Of a DNA stretch of 32,000 nucleotides, positions 21,308 through 30,619 are shown piece by piece. Both the position numbers and the translations under genes were made by a program. Source of the DNA: an uncultured archaeon (GTDB lineage Archaea > Asgardarchaeota > Thorarchaeia > Thorarchaeales > Thorarchaeaceae). The number at the start of each line of letters is the position of its first letter. Position 1 is the stretch's first letter. Where the stretch lies: contig CAYHAA010000001.1 in NCBI GenBank assembly GCA_964354495.1, forward strand, positions 338,075-370,074, given 5' to 3'. Below the pieces are notes generated by a model. The model saw nothing but the letters and a program-made list of their open reading frames with translations. It searched no databases and had not been told where the DNA came from.

Positions 21308-22117
21308 CTACACGAGTTTCATTTTTGCTGCGAGCTTGTTCACGAGCACTGCAAATGCCTTCGACGCCTTTGAATCTGGGTCCTCCAGAACAAATGGGGT
21401 GCCATTGTCACTTAGAGTAATCACTCTAGGATCCAAGGGAAGGGTACCGAGATGTTCGATTCCATATTCCTTCGATGCTCTTCTGGCTGCACCCTCTCCA
21501 AAGATTTTGTAAGACTCGCCACACTTTGGGCAAATGAATTCTGCCATGTTCTCGACAATGCCAAGGATAGGTATGCCCATTTTCTCGACAAGTTGAATTG
21601 CTCTTCTAGCATCGAGTACTGCTACTTCCTGAGGCGTTACTACAATGACCACACCATCGATATCAGGTATTGATTGTAGGATGCTAAGTATCTCATCTCC
21701 AGTTCCTGGGGGAAGGTCTACAACAAGGACATCAAGGGCTCCCCAATTAACATTGGATAGGAACTGGCTGATTGCCTTGGCGACCAGAGGCCCTCGCCAC
21801 GCAACTGCATCATCATTCTTTCTCAAGAGGAAAGCCATACTCATGACCTTGACACCAAGTGGTCCGAGGATAGGATTGATGAAATCGCCCTCTGTAGTTG
21901 GATGTTTGCCTTCTAGGCCGAGCAGTTTTGGAATGTTTGGCCCATAGATGTCGACATCAAGAACTCCTGCTGCCTTTCCTTTGTTTGCAAATGAAACTGC
22001 AAGGTTAGCGGCGACTGTTGTCTTTCCGACTCCTCCTTTTCCGGACAATACGACAATCTTGTGCTTTATTCCCTTCATATTCTCTGCGACTTCTGGAAGT
22101 ACAGGTGATTTAGTCAT
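21308..22117 (-). CDS. mrp: Mrp/NBP35 (ApbC) family Fe-S cluster carrier ATPase
   Basis: SGKGGVGKT, DVDIYGPN, WRGP, DLPPGTGD, VENM and CPKC motifs. Confidence 0.93.
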   Translation of the reverse strand: MTKSPVLPEVAENMKGIKHKIVVLSGKGGVGKTTVAANLAVSFANKGKAAGVLDVDIYGPNIPKLLGLEGKHPTTEGDFINPILGPLGVKVMSMAFLLRKNDDAVAWRGPLVAKAISQFLSNVNWGALDVLVVDLPPGTGDEILSILQSIPDIDGVVIVVTPQEVAVLDARRAIQLVEKMGIPILGIVENMAEFICPKCGESYKIFGEGAARRASKEYGIEHLGTLPLDPRVITLSDNGTPFVLEDPDSKASKAFAVLVNKLAAKMKLV

Positions 22118-22174
22118 GACAATCGCATTGGTGCGCCTTGCGAGTTCTAAAAAGACTTTGCATACGTTTGAGAA

Positions 22175-22999
22175 TCAAGGGCCCTCTTGAAGACCCTTGA
22201 ATGCGTCTAGAATCAATCGAGCTAGCTCTTCATTCGAAGCAGCAACGAAATTCATCATAATTCCTTGTTGGAGAGGGCTGCAGAATCTCTCTCCCCCTTG
22301 ATCAAGTACAAATCCTCCTGCTTCGAATACCATATGTATTCCGCAGATATGGATAATTGGCAGCTTGTTCCTCATATCGACCATTCCATCAAGCAGGCCT
22401 CCGGCTGTCCAGCAGAGGTCGAGTAGGTTGCTTCCGGTTCTCCGAATGTCATGCGCTGCTCTCATTACTCTCATGGAGCTCTCAAGAAAATCAGAATCCC
22501 ATGCTTTCTTGGTATCATAGGATATGATGGCATCTGCCGGACTGACTGGAGCTGCTACGGTTAGTTTCTTTCCATTTCGAGTGACACCTTTGTTTCTTAT
22601 CGCAACATAGGTTTCGTTAGAAAACACTGATTCTATGACACTGATATCTACGTCATCCGAAGTCATTCTAGGATTGAAAGGAGCTATCGATATACCAATG
22701 GAAGCAAGTGGAATGCCTCTCCTCAGGTTTGCAGAACCATCAACAGGATCGACAAGGGCCAGATACTCCGGTCGTCTTCCCGCAGTCAGGAATCCTTTTT
22801 CTTCCGTCAGTATGGTAAACTCCACGCCCGAGCTTTGAAGGACTGAGATTATCTCGTCCTCTGCGCATAAGTCCAAGACAAGTGTCTGGTCACCATAGGG
22901 ATTGATTGTACCTGTGTACTCATTGGCACGATCCATATTCTCCAGGATGATCTTCTTTGCTGAGTCAGCGGCTGCTTTGATGGTTTTGAGCACGGTCAT
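22175..22999 (-). CDS. Archaeal inositol monophosphatase/FBPase-family protein
   Basis: GDQT...D..AE, TEE, LVDPVDGSANL, RRTGSNLLDL and EAGG motifs; the Asp of the WD motif is missing. Confidence 0.85.
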   Translation of the reverse strand: MTVLKTIKAAADSAKKIILENMDRANEYTGTINPYGDQTLVLDLCAEDEIISVLQSSGVEFTILTEEKGFLTAGRRPEYLALVDPVDGSANLRRGIPLASIGISIAPFNPRMTSDDVDISVIESVFSNETYVAIRNKGVTRNGKKLTVAAPVSPADAIISYDTKKAWDSDFLESSMRVMRAAHDIRRTGSNLLDLCWTAGGLLDGMVDMRNKLPIIHICGIHMVFEAGGFVLDQGGERFCSPLQQGIMMNFVAASNEELARLILDAFKGLQEGP

Positions 23000-23193
23000 A
23001 GTATCTCCTCGTAGGCATTGGCCTTCCTTCTCTATTTCACTTAAGCGGTCGGAGTGCCGACACGCACAATGCAGGAGTGTTAATGCGAATTCTCACTGTG
23101 TTAGCATTCCTGTGAAGGATTGAGTGGGTTAGACAATACCTTAAATGGTTGAGGGCACGAAATAAAAACGTAAGGCACGACACGGTGGTTCTC

Positions 23194-23859
23194 ATGGGTT
23201 TCTTGAGTGGTAAAAAGAAAGTCGATACAGAACGTGGAATCCTAGAGATGAAGGGTACAATGAATGCATTGACCCTCAGAGTCAGAAGACTAGAGACCAG
23301 AATGGCTGAAGAACAACAGTCTGCAAAGGAGGCCATGTCACGAGGCAACCGGTCCATTGCTCGGTCTCATCTCAGTATCGTTGTTGACCTGGAAAATAGG
23401 AAAGGCCGATATCAACAACAGTATCTTACGCTAGAAACAGCACTTCTCAACCTCGAAGAAGCAAAGACTCAGTCTGAGGTCCTTAGGGCGTTCAGTATTG
23501 CCAATGACGCCTTGACAGAGGCACGGACTCTCTTGAAACCTGAGGAAATCCAGGCGCAGCTCGATAGGCTCTCTGAATCTTTCGAACATATTTCCATAGC
23601 AGGTGAGCTGCTCTCGGAGGATCTCAGTGGAGCTGACTCCACTGTTGAAATGGAGGAGCGAGTTGACCGCGAACTTGATGCTATGGAAGCAGAGGTTCTT
23701 CTTGAGAAGGAGGGAGTTCTTCCGCCGCTCGAGGTCGAAGGAGGAAAAAGGCCCAAGGACGCGACCGCTGAAAAGGCAGGAGAAAAACGAATCGATGCCC
23801 TCCTTGCAGATCTAGAGAAAGAGGCTCGTGAAGAAAGAGAGCGAGAAGCTGAGGTATAG
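23194..23859 (+). CDS. ESCRT-III / Snf7-family protein (Vps20/32/60-like)
   Basis: MGFLSGKKK start after SD GGTGG; basic helical hairpin, AKEAMSRGNRSIARSHL (cf. A..al..G.k..A...L), LE..L..LE.A....EV..A, acidic C-half, LPPLEV and a terminal amphipathic helix. Confidence 0.8.
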   Translation: MGFLSGKKKVDTERGILEMKGTMNALTLRVRRLETRMAEEQQSAKEAMSRGNRSIARSHLSIVVDLENRKGRYQQQYLTLETALLNLEEAKTQSEVLRAFSIANDALTEARTLLKPEEIQAQLDRLSESFEHISIAGELLSEDLSGADSTVEMEERVDRELDAMEAEVLLEKEGVLPPLEVEGGKRPKDATAEKAGEKRIDALLADLEKEAREEREREAEV

Positions 23860-23903
23860 TCGAATCCTAGCCGTCTGAACTCATTCTACAGGTGCATACG
23901 AAG

Positions 23904-24551
23904 TTGAAGATAGAACTCGTTGTTTTTGATGTTGATGGGACGCTTACCCAGCATAGCAGTGTGTGGTGGAGACTTCACGAGCTCTTTGGCACCACCAAAG
24001 AGGGTCGGGTCTACTTCGACCAGTACTTTGCTGGAGATATCAGCTATCAACAATGGGCTGACTATGATGTTGCTCTTTGGAAAGGACAACCAGTCGACCG
24101 TGTGTTGAAAGTCGTACAGGATACGCGGCTCGTTGAGGGAGCCAAAGAGACCATTCAGATTCTACGAGACCACAACATCCATACAGCAATTCTATCTGGC
24201 GGACTTGACATAATGGCTAATGACATCGCGCGTAGGGTGGGAATTGAATTCGTCCTGACGAACAGGCTTGTCCATAAGAATGGTTACCTGACAGGTACTG
24301 TTGAGAATGTCATCGGATGGGCTGAGAAAGCAAGTCATATTCAAAAGGTTCTTGACCACTTTGGTGTCGAGCGTGAACAGACCGCCTTTGTTGGCGATGG
24401 TAGGAATGATATGAGTGTCTTTGCAGTGGTAGGCTTTTCGATTGCCTTCAATCCCGCAGATCAAGAGGTCGCAGACGCAGCAACAGTCGCTGTGAAGGAA
24501 CGCGATCTTCGAGCTATTCTCCCTCATATCATATCGGGGTACCAGCGATGA
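23904..24551 (+). CDS. Phosphoserine-phosphatase (SerB)-like HAD phosphatase
   Basis: FDVDGTL, ILSGG, EK, VGDGRND and IAFNP motifs; TTG 23904 after SD AGGTG (ORF track starts at 23892). Confidence 0.85.
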   Translation: MKIELVVFDVDGTLTQHSSVWWRLHELFGTTKEGRVYFDQYFAGDISYQQWADYDVALWKGQPVDRVLKVVQDTRLVEGAKETIQILRDHNIHTAILSGGLDIMANDIARRVGIEFVLTNRLVHKNGYLTGTVENVIGWAEKASHIQKVLDHFGVEREQTAFVGDGRNDMSVFAVVGFSIAFNPADQEVADAATVAVKERDLRAILPHIISGYQR

Positions 24552-24694
24552 GAAGCATGAACACATAGACCTGAAGGAGTATGATCATTGCCTGCTGGTT
24601 CGATGATTTATGGTTCCCCCATGAGCCTTCATTCAGGACCTTCGTTTCTCAAATCCATACCGGCTAATACTGATGGTGATTATCCTTACTGCTG

Positions 24695-25861
24695 TCATTC
24701 AAGATTTGTATATCGAGCTCCGCCTCCAGTATTGAGAAGAATGACATCTTCGTCGAAATCAATCGTACCCGCATCAATGAGATTCCTTAGTCCTACAACC
24801 CCGACTGCGCTTTCAGGACAGATATCCAATCCTTCTAGCCTCGCAACCAAGCGCTGAGTTGGTTCGATGTCATGTTCCGCTACTGCTACAGCTCCGCCGC
24901 CTGAGTTTCTTATCGCGTTGAGAATCTGCCTTCCAGCGAAAGGACTGGGCACACGAAGACCGAGTGCCATGGTCTTTCCGTTCACCCAGGGTTCTAGATT
25001 GTCTGTTCCCTTCTCTATTGCTCGCACAACAGGGGCACATCCACCACTTTGGGCAGCATATATTCTTGGACGTTCACTTCCTACAAGGCCCAGAGTTTCA
25101 AGCTCCTCAAATGCTTTCCAAATGCCGATGATTGCTGTTCCACCACCAGTAGGACAGATTATTGCGTCGGGGACTGACCAACCCATCTGCTCAGAGATTT
25201 CAAAACCAAGAGTCTTTTTACCTTCTACTCTATAGGGCTCCTTTGCTGTTGAAAGGTCTGTCCAATCACCGTTTCTTTTCCTCATTTCTTGTCCTGCGTC
25301 TGATATTGTACCACGCACTCGAACTGCTTCGGCACCGAACAGCTCACACTGTGCAAAGAAAGGTTCAGGAGTATCATCCGGCATGAAGATGTGCGCTGAC
25401 ACTCCAGCTGCTGCACTGTATGCACTTGCAGAAACACCGGCATTACCAGCTGATGGCAGTGCGAAACTCTTTGCCCCAAGCTCAAGACTCTTGGATATGG
25501 CTGTGCAGAGACCTCTATCCTTGAAGCTCCCTGTTGGGTTTTGGGCTTCGTCCTTGATTCTCAACATCCTGAGGCCCAAGTGCTTACCCAGCTGCCTTGA
25601 CAGCAGAAGTGGTGTCCATCCTTCGCCAAGACTAATGACGTAAGATGGGGACTTCACAGGGAGGAGCTGTGAATATCTCCACATCGAGTTAAGGTTTGAA
25701 GGGAACTCTCCGGAATCAATCTCCTCTTGGACGCTGCCCGTATCATATACTGCAAACAGGGGTGATCCACAGACGCAATATGTGCTGAGGTGATCAGCAG
25801 AGTGTTCTCTTCTGCATTGCGGGCATCTAAGGTGCGAAATATGAGAGATCAATGAGTTCAC
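24695..25861 (-). CDS. thrC: Threonine synthase (PLP-dependent)
   Basis: N-terminal CPQC...CVCG, SLGEGWTPL, PLP lysine in NPTGSFKDRG, SAGNAG, GKKT, PTGGG, CPESA, NTGGG. Confidence 0.85.
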   Translation of the reverse strand: MNSLISHISHLRCPQCRREHSADHLSTYCVCGSPLFAVYDTGSVQEEIDSGEFPSNLNSMWRYSQLLPVKSPSYVISLGEGWTPLLLSRQLGKHLGLRMLRIKDEAQNPTGSFKDRGLCTAISKSLELGAKSFALPSAGNAGVSASAYSAAAGVSAHIFMPDDTPEPFFAQCELFGAEAVRVRGTISDAGQEMRKRNGDWTDLSTAKEPYRVEGKKTLGFEISEQMGWSVPDAIICPTGGGTAIIGIWKAFEELETLGLVGSERPRIYAAQSGGCAPVVRAIEKGTDNLEPWVNGKTMALGLRVPSPFAGRQILNAIRNSGGGAVAVAEHDIEPTQRLVARLEGLDICPESAVGVVGLRNLIDAGTIDFDEDVILLNTGGGARYTNLE

Positions 25862-25983
25862 CTGAACTTAGACCATATGATACTCCGCGCAGTTGTACAT
25901 AAGCGTGTAGGATTGATTGAATGAACACCCTTATTTGTTGTATCGGCGTTCTTCTGTTCTGAGAGTATTCGGACGGGATACAT

Positions 25984-28659
25984 TTGGGCGAGCTCAAGCG
26001 CATAACGTTGCCCTTCACGGCCATCGTTGGCCTCGAACAGCTAAAGCTAGCCCTTCTTCTAAACGGTGTGAATCCTTCTATTGGAGGCGTGCTCATCTCA
26101 GGTCCGAAAGGCACAGGGAAGACGACTGTTGTTCGAGCACTTGCAGATCTGCTCCCTGAAGTCGATGTGGTGAAAGATTGTCGTTTTGGGTGTAATCCCA
26201 GCAATCCTGATTTCTTTTGTGAAGAATGTAGATCTCGTGTGTCAGGTGGTGCAGCGCTTGAATCCACAAGACGGAAGATGCGAGTTGTGAATCTGCCTCT
26301 TTCGACCACTGAGGACCGCCTCATTGGTGCGTTAGACATCGAGCAAGTTCTTCGGGAGGGTATCCGTGCACTTAAACCAGGGATACTTGCAGATGCACAT
26401 CAAAACGTTCTGTATGTAGATGAAGTGAATCTATTGCCAGACCACCTCGTCGATGATCTCCTTGATGCCGCTGCGACAAAAGTCAACACGATTGAACGCG
26501 AAGGAATCTCCATCTCACACCCCTCGGACTTTGTCCTTATAGGCACAATGAACCCAGAAGAAGGTGAGCTCCGACCGCAACTATTGGATCGATTCGCTCT
26601 CCATGTTGCAATTGGTTCGAATCACTCTATCGAAGAACGGATGGAGCTTGTAAGAAGGAATCTTGAGTTTGAGAGAGACCCTGACGGATTTCGCGAAGAC
26701 TGGTCGGATGTTCAGCAAGAGATACGAGAAAGAATCGTACGTGCCAAAGACTCACTGGAAAACGTAGAGCTAGATGATACGAACTTGCGCGCCATAGCGA
26801 TGGCTTGTGATGCACTAGAAGTCGATGGTGTTCGGCCGGATATCGTGATTAGCAAGACAGCAATTACACACGCTGCATTTCAAGGCCGCACAAAGGTCAC
26901 TCTTGAAGACATGAAGCTTGCTTCGCAACTTGCTCTAAGTCATAGAACCCGTAGAGGCGGTCTCTTGGAGCCGCCCTCTTCTGGCGATATTGATCGAGCA
27001 ATAACAAAAGCAGTGGACGTTGCAAAGAAAAACGACCGCAGGAAATCGCCAACTGAAATTCCCAAGGAGGACGAAGAGACCGCTGAGCAGGGAGAGCGAC
27101 GAAGCGGAGGTCGCTTTGGCAGGCAATCAGGTTTTGCTCAATTTGGAAGACAGGAGGGCAAAAAAAAAACTCCCGGTAAAATAAGAAGGCCAGAGGGCAA
27201 TCCCATCAAGGGCACAATATGTGCAGTGATGATGGTTGTTAGTTTTAGCTATTTTCTCTGGATCTATGCAAGCCCTGTGAATTGGCTGTTTGGTTCCTGG
27301 ATTCTTGAGTTTCCTCCTCTCCATGTCATCATTATTGACACTATCATCTATATCCCTCTTATCTGGCGACTCGTTAGGAAATGGCTTGAAGTCATGACTC
27401 GGCGAAAGAGCGGACCAACAGCCGGAATCGACACAGTGGAACCAGGTCGCGCCATGCCTGAATCTGGTGATGAGTGGGGACTAGCGACAAGACCCTATGT
27501 TCCAGAAAAGCCAAGCATAATTACAGGGCCAAAATCCGACATTAGAGAATCTCCTTTTGGACTGGACGATAGTTTCTTTGTCAAGATGCCTGATATCGAC
27601 ACAGGAGAAGAGATCTTCGATGGTGAAAAGCTCCGGATGAGGGCCATGATTCGCTCTCGCGTCACAACTGGGAACTGGATAAACAAACGAGTGAGCTCAC
27701 GAGCATTCGGGTCTCTGAAGTCTACTGGTGCAGTGAAACATGGAAGACCTATCCGATCCCGAATGCCTGCCCGCGAAATCGAGAGCATACATGTGCCTTC
27801 AACGGTAATGGCAGCAATTGTCAGGACCGGTCATGCACAGCATTTGCCGATTAGAATCACGCGTGATGACCTTCGTGAGAACATGTTTGCTGGCAAGAGC
27901 CCTCTTACGATAATTCTTGTCATCGATGTAAGTCTATCAATGAAGGGCAGCATGGAGGAAGTCAGGCAACTACTCGAACGCATTGAGGGCGAAACCCGTG
28001 GTTCCAAGGATCGAACTGGGATAATAGCGTTCAAGGATAGTGGAGCCGTGGAAGTTCAGGCTCCTACAACCAATTGGAATAAGATCTACAGAGTTCTAGG
28101 CCGTCTAAGGATATCTGGTCTGACACCGCTTGCAGATGCTCTCCGAAAGGCGTTTGAAACCATTCAGAGAGAGCGAATGAGGAATCCTGACATTGAGCCT
28201 TTTGTCATAGTTATTTCAGACTTCTCTCCGAACATCCCGCTAGCTCAGTCCGTTGGGCCCGGTGACAGTCAATATACCCCCGTGCAAGACCTCATCAGGA
28301 CTTCTCGAATGTTGCGAAAGGCGAAGATTCGAATGGCCGCTATCAATGTTGACCCAGAACAGAGCAAATGGCCAAGATTCCTTGAACGTCCCTATCATGA
28401 AGCGCTCGAACTAGCAGCGATGCTTAGAGCTAGGAAAGACGGTCTTGATGATCCGATTGAAGCAGTTCTTTCAGTAGACGAGTTTAGGAGATCTTTTGGC
28501 GCTTATCTTGTAGCTAAGGCCGGGGGCGGTCGAGCACACCTTTCGCGAGACCTCATGAAGGAGAAATCCATACTTCGGACACTCTTGCTTACTGGTAGAA
28601 CTAGGTCGCGATTTCGTGAGGAAGACTTGAGAGAGATTGAAGCGTATCTTCCAAAATGA
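25984..28659 (+). CDS. ChlI/ChlD (Mg/Co-chelatase subunit)-like AAA+ ATPase with C-terminal vWA domain and an internal TM hairpin
   Basis: PFTAIVG, Walker A GPKGTGKT, Walker [26 protein letters not shown]; vWA MIDAS DVSLS, GLTPL, ISDF; two hydrophobic helices at about residues 410-464. Confidence 0.85.
27160..27169 (+). repeat. A10 homopolymer within the CDS (candidate slippage/frameshift site)
   Basis: GGC AAA AAA AAA ACT; stop codons follow within 3-4 codons in both shifted frames. Confidence 0.7.
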
Positions 28660-28842
28660 TTCCTCGGTTTTGCACTCGCAATTAGATTATTAACAGGGGC
28701 AGTGTCCTTGACATACGCGCATGGCTGATAGATGTCTTCTGTCATAGTGAGCGAGGAGAGCCCCGAATGGGTTTCTATGAATTTGCTTTTCATGCACCAG
28801 ACACAAGTCGTGCGCACCTTTCAAAAAAGAGGAGTTCAATAA

Positions 28843-29853
28843 ATGCTTCCAGGCAAAGTCCCACCAGATATTCTCAAGAAGATAGTATTCTCTCACCTTG
28901 GTGTCCTGGATCCTAGAGTTCTACTTGGACCGCGTCTTGGAGAGGATGCATCCCTCATTCAGATTGGAGACAAGGTAATTGTTGTTTCAACTGATCCTAT
29001 CACTGGGTCCGTAGAGGATATTGGATGGCTTGTGGTCCACGTCAACGCGAATGATATTGCCACCTTTGGCGTTGCTCCGAGATGGTTGTTGGTCTCAATC
29101 ATGCTGCCCAGCGGTTATAGACCGCTAGCACTGGCAAAAATAATGAAGCAAATAGATGAGGCCTCGAGAGAGCTGGGTATTGCAGTCGTGGGTGGTCACT
29201 CAGAAATAACAGAGCGACTAGATCAACCAATCATCGTTGGTTTCATGATGGGTGTCACTGAGAAGGATCATTATGTCACAGCTAGTGGTGCGCGAACTGG
29301 GGATGCAATACTCATGACCAAGACTGTGGCCATTGAAGGTACTGCTATTCTTGCAACTGAAGGATATGCAACACTCTCTAAGAGCATCGGTGTTGATGTC
29401 ATAAGAAAAGGTCGCAAACTGAGAGGGCAGATCAGTGTGGTTAAAGATGGCGTTGTTGCTTTTGCGACCGGGCATGTTCATGCAATGCACGATCCCACTG
29501 AGGGCGGCCTCGCAGGCGGAATTCATGAACTGTGTGATGCCAGCCAGGTTGGTTTCGAGATCAGAAGCGATGACATTCCCATCAGCAGTCCAACGAAACG
29601 AATCTGTGAGACCCTCGGAATCAATCCGCTTGAGTTGATATGTAGTGGGTCCATGATCATGAGCTGTTCTGCTGAGAATGCGAATGAAGTGATCCATGCG
29701 CTTGAATCGGAAGGGATAGCAGCGACACGTATAGGAACAATAGTTAGCGACCTAGATCATCGCAAGATTCATACTGGTGGTTCATTAGCTGACCTGCCTC
29801 GACCCAAGAGCGATGCGCTATGGAATGCTCTCAAGAAAGTCAATCCTTCATGA
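28843..29853 (+). CDS. AIR synthase (PurM-like) family protein
   Basis: GKVPP, GEDA, STDPITG, HVNANDIA, GGHSE, HDPTEGG, SGSM; lacks the C-terminal PRIC of HypE. Confidence 0.85.
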   Translation: MLPGKVPPDILKKIVFSHLGVLDPRVLLGPRLGEDASLIQIGDKVIVVSTDPITGSVEDIGWLVVHVNANDIATFGVAPRWLLVSIMLPSGYRPLALAKIMKQIDEASRELGIAVVGGHSEITERLDQPIIVGFMMGVTEKDHYVTASGARTGDAILMTKTVAIEGTAILATEGYATLSKSIGVDVIRKGRKLRGQISVVKDGVVAFATGHVHAMHDPTEGGLAGGIHELCDASQVGFEIRSDDIPISSPTKRICETLGINPLELICSGSMIMSCSAENANEVIHALESEGIAATRIGTIVSDLDHRKIHTGGSLADLPRPKSDALWNALKKVNPS

Positions 29854-30619
29854 ATCTCTTCAATCGGTCGATTTCCTCATCATGGATGAATTCGATTTTC
29901 ACTGGCGAAAGAGCGATATTGTTGTTGACCGAAACTTCGTAGGCATCAGTTCCCCTAGGTGCCTCTTGTTCAATGCCTAGATACCAATAATACGGCCGGC
30001 CATTTGGATCAAGCCTGCGCTCCACTTCATTATGCATCCGAACCTTTGTCGGCTTTGTGATTACCAACTTGCTCTTATCTGACAATTCAGCGGGAAAGTT
30101 CAGATTAAGAAGATCAACACCTTCAGGCATTCCTCTGTCCAACACTCTCATCACAAGGTCCCGTGTGATTTTGCAGATTTTGCTGCAGTCCTGTGTGGTG
30201 CCTGTTGAGTCGAACCACTCTTCGGGCGTTGCCTGGCGTGATACTGCAATGGCTGGAATTCCACGCAATGCTGCCTCGAAGGCGGCTCCCACTGTTCCAC
30301 TCGTTAGCATACTCTGATACCCGACATTCGCGCCTGTGTTTGGACCTGATACAAGTAGACCTATGTCTTCGTAGAATGACTCCGCAAGTATGATAGAGTC
30401 TGCAGGGGTTCCATCATGAGTTACAAAACTGTATCCATTTATGGTATGCTGCTCGGTGATTCGAATCGGCCTTGTCAATGTGAGCGCTTTTCCAGAGGCA
30501 CTCTTCTGGACATCGGGAACCATGACGAAAAGCTCGACCTCTCTGCTCAGCACTTCAGCGAGTTTCAGTAGTCCTTCACTGCGGGGTCCATCATCGTTTG
30601 TTAGGCACACTCTTGGCAA
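29840..30619 (-). CDS. surE: 5'/3'-nucleotidase SurE
   Basis: LTNDDG, QKSASG, GTPAD, VSGPNTGAN, SGTVGAAFEA, LNLNFP; 3' end overlaps the convergent AIR-synthase gene by 14 nt. Confidence 0.93.
   Translation of the reverse strand: MPRVCLTNDDGPRSEGLLKLAEVLSREVELFVMVPDVQKSASGKALTLTRPIRITEQHTINGYSFVTHDGTPADSIILAESFYEDIGLLVSGPNTGANVGYQSMLTSGTVGAAFEAALRGIPAIAVSRQATPEEWFDSTGTTQDCSKICKITRDLVMRVLDRGMPEGVDLLNLNFPAELSDKSKLVITKPTKVRMHNEVERRLDPNGRPYYWYLGIEQEAPRGTDAYEVSVNNNIALSPVKIEFIHDEEIDRLKRFMKD

Follow-up and report, generated by a model that had tools for sequence, protein, structure and literature searches.

Recoding in 'magnesium chelatase' genes of the fs-chlD type proceeds through a −1 event at the motif A_AAA_AAR within runs of 7–11 A's (Antonov et al., 2013, PMC3711429; Atkins et al., 2016, PMC5009743), and in Escherichia coli the shifting amounts to 10%, 40% and 63% for 7, 9 and 11 A's respectively (Antonov et al., 2013). 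Archaeal recoded examples are known from Methanocaldococcus and Methanococcus (Antonov et al., 2013; Atkins et al., 2016), and fs-chlD genes also occur in genomes without chlH/cobN (and without tetrapyrrole pathways, 'stage 1'; Kuznetsov et al., 2022, PMC9227772). Transcriptional slippage at a run of nine has been described for dnaX of Thermus thermophilus, where the long product is encoded in a single open reading frame (ORF) and the presence of two tRNA-Lys species was taken as an argument for slippage during transcription (Atkins et al., 2016). Here we analyse a window of 32,000 nucleotides (nt) from a Thorarchaeota genome (assembly GCA_964354495.1, contig CAYHAA010000001.1, positions 338,075–370,074), in which a ChlI/ChlD-like gene carries a run of ten A's (A10; 27160–27169, + strand) that sits 3′ of a complete ChlI-like AAA+ module and 5′ of two predicted transmembrane (TM) helices and a vWA domain. 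Comparison with its orthologs suggests, with high probability, that this run is the programmed slip site of an fs-chlD-type gene, conserved across the whole Thorarchaeota family, from which a short ATPase and a long membrane form would both be made. Recoding of this kind has been published before for chlD genes; what we describe is a membrane-anchored Asgard variant of it.

The protein was searched against the window's genus and then against the whole class (87 genomes, 17 genera), the junction was typed in 67 orthologs from 17 genera with frames called by anchors, and the junction regions were compared in an alignment of 54 sequences and in a tree of all 67 with the run masked. In nearly every genome the protein match falls into two pieces in different frames that meet at residues 388–399, and at this same spot a run of A8–A11 is kept in 66 of the 67 orthologs (A9 in 48, A10 in 13, A11 in four and A8 in one) without being broken up by AAG codons, a point that the earlier note on this DNA had singled out as critical for its proposal of a slip site. 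Seven A columns are invariant across the alignment and the neighbouring third codon positions are free to vary, while at a conserved Lys 25 codons downstream AAG is used in 30 orthologs and AAA in 20. Genome-wide, Lys is encoded by AAA in 33.5% and by AAG in 66.5% of cases, and among the 170 Lys-Lys-Lys triplets in the long ORFs of the genome the run's triplet alone is encoded by AAAAAAAAA. An A-run that is invariant despite an AAG-preferring codon usage argues that selection acts on the nucleotides of the run and not on lysine. The single exception (L067, G066:C37:97160–97760) has its main run broken by a G (GGG AAA AAG AAA CAG) and retains another A_AAA_AAA, in phase and abutting the stop of the zero frame (CC AAAAAAA TAA). 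The same A7 occurs, together with an A9 run, in L070, the sister of L067, and it looks like a back-up or relocated slip site.

The frame relation between the two pieces is similarly uniform. A −1 shift is required to join the AAA+ part with the TM–vWA part in 59 of the 67 orthologs, including A10 and A11 variants whose compensating flanks bring them to −1 too; six orthologs, the window's copy included, are in frame and two need +1. The zero frame ends 4–5 codons past the run in most of the −1 orthologs, with tails such as KKKLRKE* and KKKKLKE*. In five orthologs (L061, L073, L076, L080 and L081) this stop (TAA or TGA within ATAAGG or GTGAGG) is replaced by ATTCGG and the short-form tail is longer, reaching ~14–20 residues past the Lys run, and the precise C-terminal end of the short form thus varies among orthologs. 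One further ortholog, L011 (G001:C4:16576–21078), matches only residues 1–234 in one open frame in its N-terminal half and so must carry another disruption, or an insertion, 5′ of the poly-A run.

Several lines of evidence indicate that what follows the run is the second half of the same gene. Read in the long-form frame, the 40 nt past the run evolve like coding sequence, with a clear three-base periodicity in entropy (0.80, 0.49 and 1.39 at the three codon positions), and the TM–vWA half is stop-free at 53–93% identity. In 37 of the 54 aligned orthologs no ATG, GTG or TTG lies ahead of the Met in the first TM helix (TM1) in the long-form frame, and in 10 orthologs that frame opens only inside the run, where t+AA forms a stop, so that ribosomes must enter the long-form frame at the run. 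Fused in-frame relatives of 856–892 amino acids (aa) with the same membrane segment occur in another Asgard family (L027 and L129–L140; family f12, genera g12 and g34), and the two halves therefore make up a single protein. In a library of 1.84 billion cluster representatives, only six entries match the C-terminal half at E ≤ 1e-30, and the best of these, P0002, is a 477-aa gene call that begins at the Met inside TM1, a start that looks like a gene-caller artefact of the split. The window's genome (97.7% complete) lacks a stand-alone chlI, its other TIGR02030 matches reaching only 33 and 20 bits, and in the relatives searched no ChlI-like matches were found outside the gene's own pieces, a genome of the fused family (G035) likewise being without a separate chlI; the absence of chlI that the earlier note had recorded for the window thus extends to the genome. 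The dnaX-like A6–A7 Lys-Lys site that the fused sister family carries at the corresponding position of the linker, which served as a negative control, was considered as a slip site in its own right and rejected: AAA is the Lys codon preferred there (67%), and the site is broken in one ortholog.

The best reading of these observations is that a single gene supplies two products, one short and soluble, the other long and anchored in the membrane. In the standard arrangement (A9–A11, out of frame), normal decoding would stop 4–5 codons past the run and release a soluble, complete ChlI-like AAA+ ATPase of ~400 aa, and a −1 event on the run, in which either RNA polymerase adds one A or the ribosome slips back by one base, would fuse this ATPase to the TM hairpin and to the vWA domain with its metal ion-dependent adhesion site (MIDAS), yielding a membrane-anchored protein of ~890 aa. 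Since short and long forms would share the AAA+ module they would probably co-assemble in one ring, as in ChlI/ChlD, with the long subunits tethering it to the membrane. The earlier note had placed a slip site between the ChlI-like ATPase and the TM–vWA half, with two products, and this much is upheld by the 66 conserved runs and the lack of a separate chlI. Its direction has to be reversed for most of the family: 59 orthologs and two assemblies of the window's own species would make the short form by default and reach the long form by slipping. The converse model of that note, with the long form as default, applies directly to in-frame alleles, among which the window's A10 is either an exceptional state at a tip of the tree or a homopolymer error. 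If real, this allele with its one additional A would produce the long form by default, and a slip of one A either way would lead to short forms. The slip may act as a localisation switch.

In the window itself the run occupies codons 393–395 and the first base of codon 396, and the local reading is ggc AAA AAA AAA Act ccc ggt aaa ata aga. Both shifted frames close fast, at TAA codons 8 nt and 13 nt past the run. Specifically, a −1 shift or one added A leads to the TAA at 27177–27179 (+ strand) and a short form ending in KKKNSR (398 aa), and a +1 shift or one lost A leads to the TAA at 27182–27184 (+ strand) and a short form ending in KKKLPVK (399 aa); the latter TAA is at the zero-frame stop position of the A9 relatives (L005: KKKLPEK*). 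On re-reading the sequence we found the coordinates, codons, shifted products and lengths given in the earlier note to be correct throughout, and its observation that the A10 is the longest homopolymer holds for the whole window, the runners-up being two T8 runs. The 3.3-Mb genome contains ten A/T runs of at least nine, of which the A10 at 27160 is the sole one deep inside a long ORF. Other long A/T runs (C10:13264, C1:486655 and C2:4710) were considered as slip sites and set aside, as none has a two-frame gene arrangement. One of them, G000:C10:13264–13273, is a second A10 in a similar context (ggggcA10c), where the longest frame is on the opposite strand and reads the run as Phe codons in a hydrophobic protein.

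Some of our observations weigh against a conserved, programmed slip site. The window's copy is in frame, so that its own sequence alone demands no slip, and contigs from two independent public studies (X1, depth 37, and X5, depth 12) that are 99.7% identical to the window carry A9; these are DNA contigs, the source sample of the window is not among them (best word share 0.90), and they differ from the window by 4 substitutions in 1601 nt, i.e. they derive from different strains. The fused sister family has neither a conserved slip site nor a separate chlI, and for this reason the short form is better seen as an addition of the Thorarchaeota family than as a universal need. In addition, the shift efficiencies from E. 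coli need not hold in archaea, the Met in TM1 is conserved and is where gene callers start the 477-aa protein (P0002), and a lack of start codons, taken alone, may leave room for independent initiation.

How the window's in-frame state is to be understood depends largely on the junction tree, on which the −1 state is ancestral and in-frame states have at least five origins, at tips only. Either the window gained one A recently (a +1A allele) or its A10 reflects a homopolymer error; even within the window's species, the usual state is out of frame. An assembly or sequencing error, in which case the organism would really be A9 and out of frame and the recoding would stand without its in-frame version, has in our judgement somewhat less than an even chance. 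It would account for the A9 in X1 and X5, agrees with the A9 of the sister species on the tree (L005, 90% nucleotide identity), and is in keeping with the confinement of in-frame states to tree tips; against it, X1 and X5 are other strains than the window's, and in-frame alleles recur in five lineages. Two of these cases establish that real in-frame alleles exist in the family, since L034 and L037 have such an allele in common with differing runs (cA11 versus cgA10) and L036 came into frame through replacement of ccc by A outside the run. Every in-frame allele retains A10–A11, and the distribution on the tree suggests that such alleles arise repeatedly but do not last. Variation in run length is also apparent in metagenomic data: one metagenome-assembled genome, G096 (6% contamination), contains near-identical copies with A10 in frame (L041, C195) and with A9 out of frame (L053, C247), which probably come from two strains of differing run length that share the bin, and Logan contigs of X6 and X7 end either side of the run (window 26975–27200) without bridging it, which could reflect run-length heterogeneity or just low depth.

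Such one-A differences between close relatives (the window and X1/X5, L035 and L051, and L041 and L053, both in G096), together with the breaks of the X6 and X7 contigs around the run, are what a DNA-level phase-variation tract would show, in which replication slippage flips A9 (short form only) and A10 (long form only) with no programmed slip of RNA or ribosome. We hold this to be improbable, as 88% of species representatives share one −1 state and the other states are found at tips only, and a pure off state would leave the 500-aa TM–vWA half untranslated in most species, yet this half is conserved and coding-like. Still less probable is a pair of ordinary genes, a chlI-like gene followed by a TM–vWA gene starting at the TM1 Met, with the A-run incidental to both. 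The start of P0002 at that Met and the fact that every one of the 54 aligned orthologs has an ATG at this position or no more than two codons away are as this would have it, but some 19 codons ahead of the TM1 Met show coding conservation when read in the long-form frame, the 37 orthologs without an earlier start codon do not fit, a start at this Met would trim TM1 to ~14 residues, and an A-run held invariant against codon preference would go unexplained, as would the fused relatives and the in-frame alleles. Gene decay, finally, with the frame breaks as inactivating mutations at a fragile homopolymer, is hardly credible: the frame state does vary among orthologs (−1, 0 or +1) and L011 is disrupted further in its N-terminal part, but the same −1 break is kept in 59 orthologs across 17 genera, both halves being intact and subject to purifying selection, and we saw neither a ratio of non-synonymous to synonymous substitution rates (dN/dS) near 1 in the C-terminal half nor scattered stops in most orthologs. 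Programmed slipping at the run therefore remains the reading that we prefer.

As to how the slip would come about, the sequence alone cannot separate RNA-polymerase slippage from ribosomal frameshifting. The RNA–DNA hybrid is ~9 long, and slippage of tRNA needs 7. We give RNA-polymerase slippage about an even chance of being the main mechanism, and it is favoured because the run is at least nine long, lacks a conserved downstream structure and occurs together with both tRNA-Lys species: no such structure was found among the 54 aligned sequences (RNAalifold consensus −0.02 kcal/mol, 4 pairs, no compensatory change), and the genome encodes both tRNA-Lys CUU and tRNA-Lys UUU. Ribosomal −1 frameshifting, as the main mechanism or in combination with slippage of the polymerase, is possible and on present evidence the less likely of the two. 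An X_XXY_YYZ heptamer does lie in the zero frame of the out-of-frame orthologs (A_AAA_AAA with A9, A_AAA_AAG with A10 and A11), and ribosomal slippage may also serve, because L067 has only an A7 beside a stop.

The gene (25984–28659; this and all features below are on the + strand) encodes 891 aa (P0001) in frame in this assembly, from a TTG start as listed, in the order AAA+ module, basic linker, A10 run, TM hairpin and vWA domain. The complete ChlI-like AAA+ module (residues 10–342; 26011–27009) is delimited by profile and structure alignments: it matches TIGR02030 at 385 bits over profile positions 2–334 of 337 (333/337), and residues 4–342 align end to end with the solved ChlI structures 6l8d, 8osf and 1g8p (E 5e-99). 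Walker A (GPKGTGKT, 26101–26124) and Walker B (LYVDEVNLL, 26410–26436) are intact, and between them lies a Cys-rich insert (CRFGC...C..C; C66, C70, C79 and C82; 26179–26229) that may be a metal-binding knuckle. The charged linker (residues 343–392; 27010–27159) has a purine-rich GGAGGGC at its 3′-end, adjoining the run, and on the other side of the run a peptide of 14 residues found only in the long form (27170–27210) is marked out by conservation in the long-form frame. Two hydrophobic helices (residues 410–430 and 447–464; 27211–27375), also confined to the long form and flanked by K/R clusters, would form the membrane hairpin, with a topology predicted from the positive-inside rule. The vWA domain (residues 643–747; 27910–28224) was recognized by its profile match to VWA_2 and contains the MIDAS motif DVSLS (residues 648–652; 27925–27939). 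TIGR02442 scores 569 bits, TIGR02030 385 bits and VWA_2 48 bits; the chelatase equivalog cut-offs are missed in each case (TIGR02442, 569 versus 779; TIGR02030, 385 versus 467; TIGR02031, 301 versus 500), and the Pfam families bpMoxR and AAA_3 give marginal matches only.

The function of the two products is unlikely to be that suggested by the usual annotation. Searches for CobN/ChlH (PF02514) yielded nothing in the window's genome (97.7% complete) or across the class (87 genomes), while five of 14 control genomes were positive. Because no large subunit was found in the class we do not take the protein for part of a Mg or Co chelatase; 'chelatase subunit' is a doubtful description, and the locus is more plausibly an I/D-type AAA+/vWA motor without the catalytic subunit of a chelatase. 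By analogy with the MoxR–vWA pairs considered below, it probably uses ATP to drive remodelling or the loading of a cofactor at the membrane. The neighbouring genes (window 21308–30619) are, in order, ParA/NUBPL, IMPase, Snf7 (ESCRT-III-like), HAD, ThrC, the ChlID-like gene, an AIR-synthase-like gene and SurE, an order shared by the 12 family genomes that were sampled (L082–L093). None of the neighbours in this block adjoins the homologs of the ChlID-like gene in other Asgard families. We therefore rejected the neighbours as a clue to operon structure or function and regard the block as general collinearity, given the absence of linkage in those families.

Asgard archaea are the closest archaeal relatives of eukaryotes, and the locus would provide a family-wide recoding site among them whose two products differ by a membrane anchor, with the slip ratio setting the number of ring subunits that are tethered to the membrane. 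Gene callers presently split the Thorarchaeota locus into a 'magnesium chelatase' and a start-less 'VWA protein', for which one recoded gene is the better annotation. What we add is a broader ortholog count and the recurrent, short-lived in-frame alleles. Tentatively, and with low confidence, one may picture the run as acting at two levels: heritable changes of one base in run length (A9 to A10, as between near-identical strains) would flip the default product, slippage on RNA would always supply the other, and the ratio of soluble to tethered subunits would be tuned in a machine that works without a tetrapyrrole chelatase subunit throughout the Thorarchaeota family searched. Asgard archaea would thereby also provide their first described case of a conserved recoding site. 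If this were so, the run would be a natural reporter for slippage by the eukaryote-like archaeal RNA polymerase. No paper joining Asgard, chelatase and von Willebrand was found in our literature search; the supplement of Kuznetsov and colleagues (PMC9227772) makes no mention of Asgard or Thorarchaeota, and a study of archaeal fusion and fission families (PMC11237513) does not mention chelatase.

Set beside the systems introduced at the outset, the locus most resembles fs-chlD, with which it shares a complete ChlI-like AAA+ ORF of ~1 kb joined at a conserved poly-A to a vWA half that lies in the −1 frame, the lack of a separate chlI and the existence of fused in-frame relatives. It differs from fs-chlD in its Asgard lineage and in the two-helix membrane hairpin that lies between AAA+ and vWA in the long form, because of which the two products are predicted to differ in location; moreover, neither a conserved structure downstream of the run nor, across the class (87 genomes), a large subunit turned up, and because the window's copy is in frame its default and slipped products are swapped. 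In this last respect it is closer to dnaX of Thermus, as the window's A10 stands in a single ORF with stops in both non-zero frames, an mRNA longer or shorter by one base would yield a short product, and the window's genome has two tRNA-Lys species; the protein is unrelated, however, the Thermus gene encoding a clamp-loader subunit, and the single-ORF state that is the fixed norm there is, here, a rare allele of a gene that is normally split. Frameshifting of the E. coli dnaX type (−1) has in common with the out-of-frame orthologs an in-phase X_XXY_YYZ heptamer, but a conserved stimulatory structure was not found at our locus. At the protein level, the end-to-end alignment of residues 4–342 with intact Walker A and B is as in ChlI/BchI and the C-terminal vWA domain with MIDAS is as in ChlD/BchD, but the scores fall below the equivalog cut-offs, a TM hairpin takes the place of the soluble acidic/Pro-rich linker of ChlD, and the ChlH/CobN catalytic subunit was found neither in the genome nor in the class. 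Pairs of MoxR-type AAA+ and vWA proteins (RavA–ViaA, CbbQ–CbbO and NorQ–NorD) combine an AAA+ ring with a vWA/MIDAS adaptor, have no tetrapyrrole substrate, and are encoded by separate genes without recoding. They provide a model for how an I/D pair may work without H.

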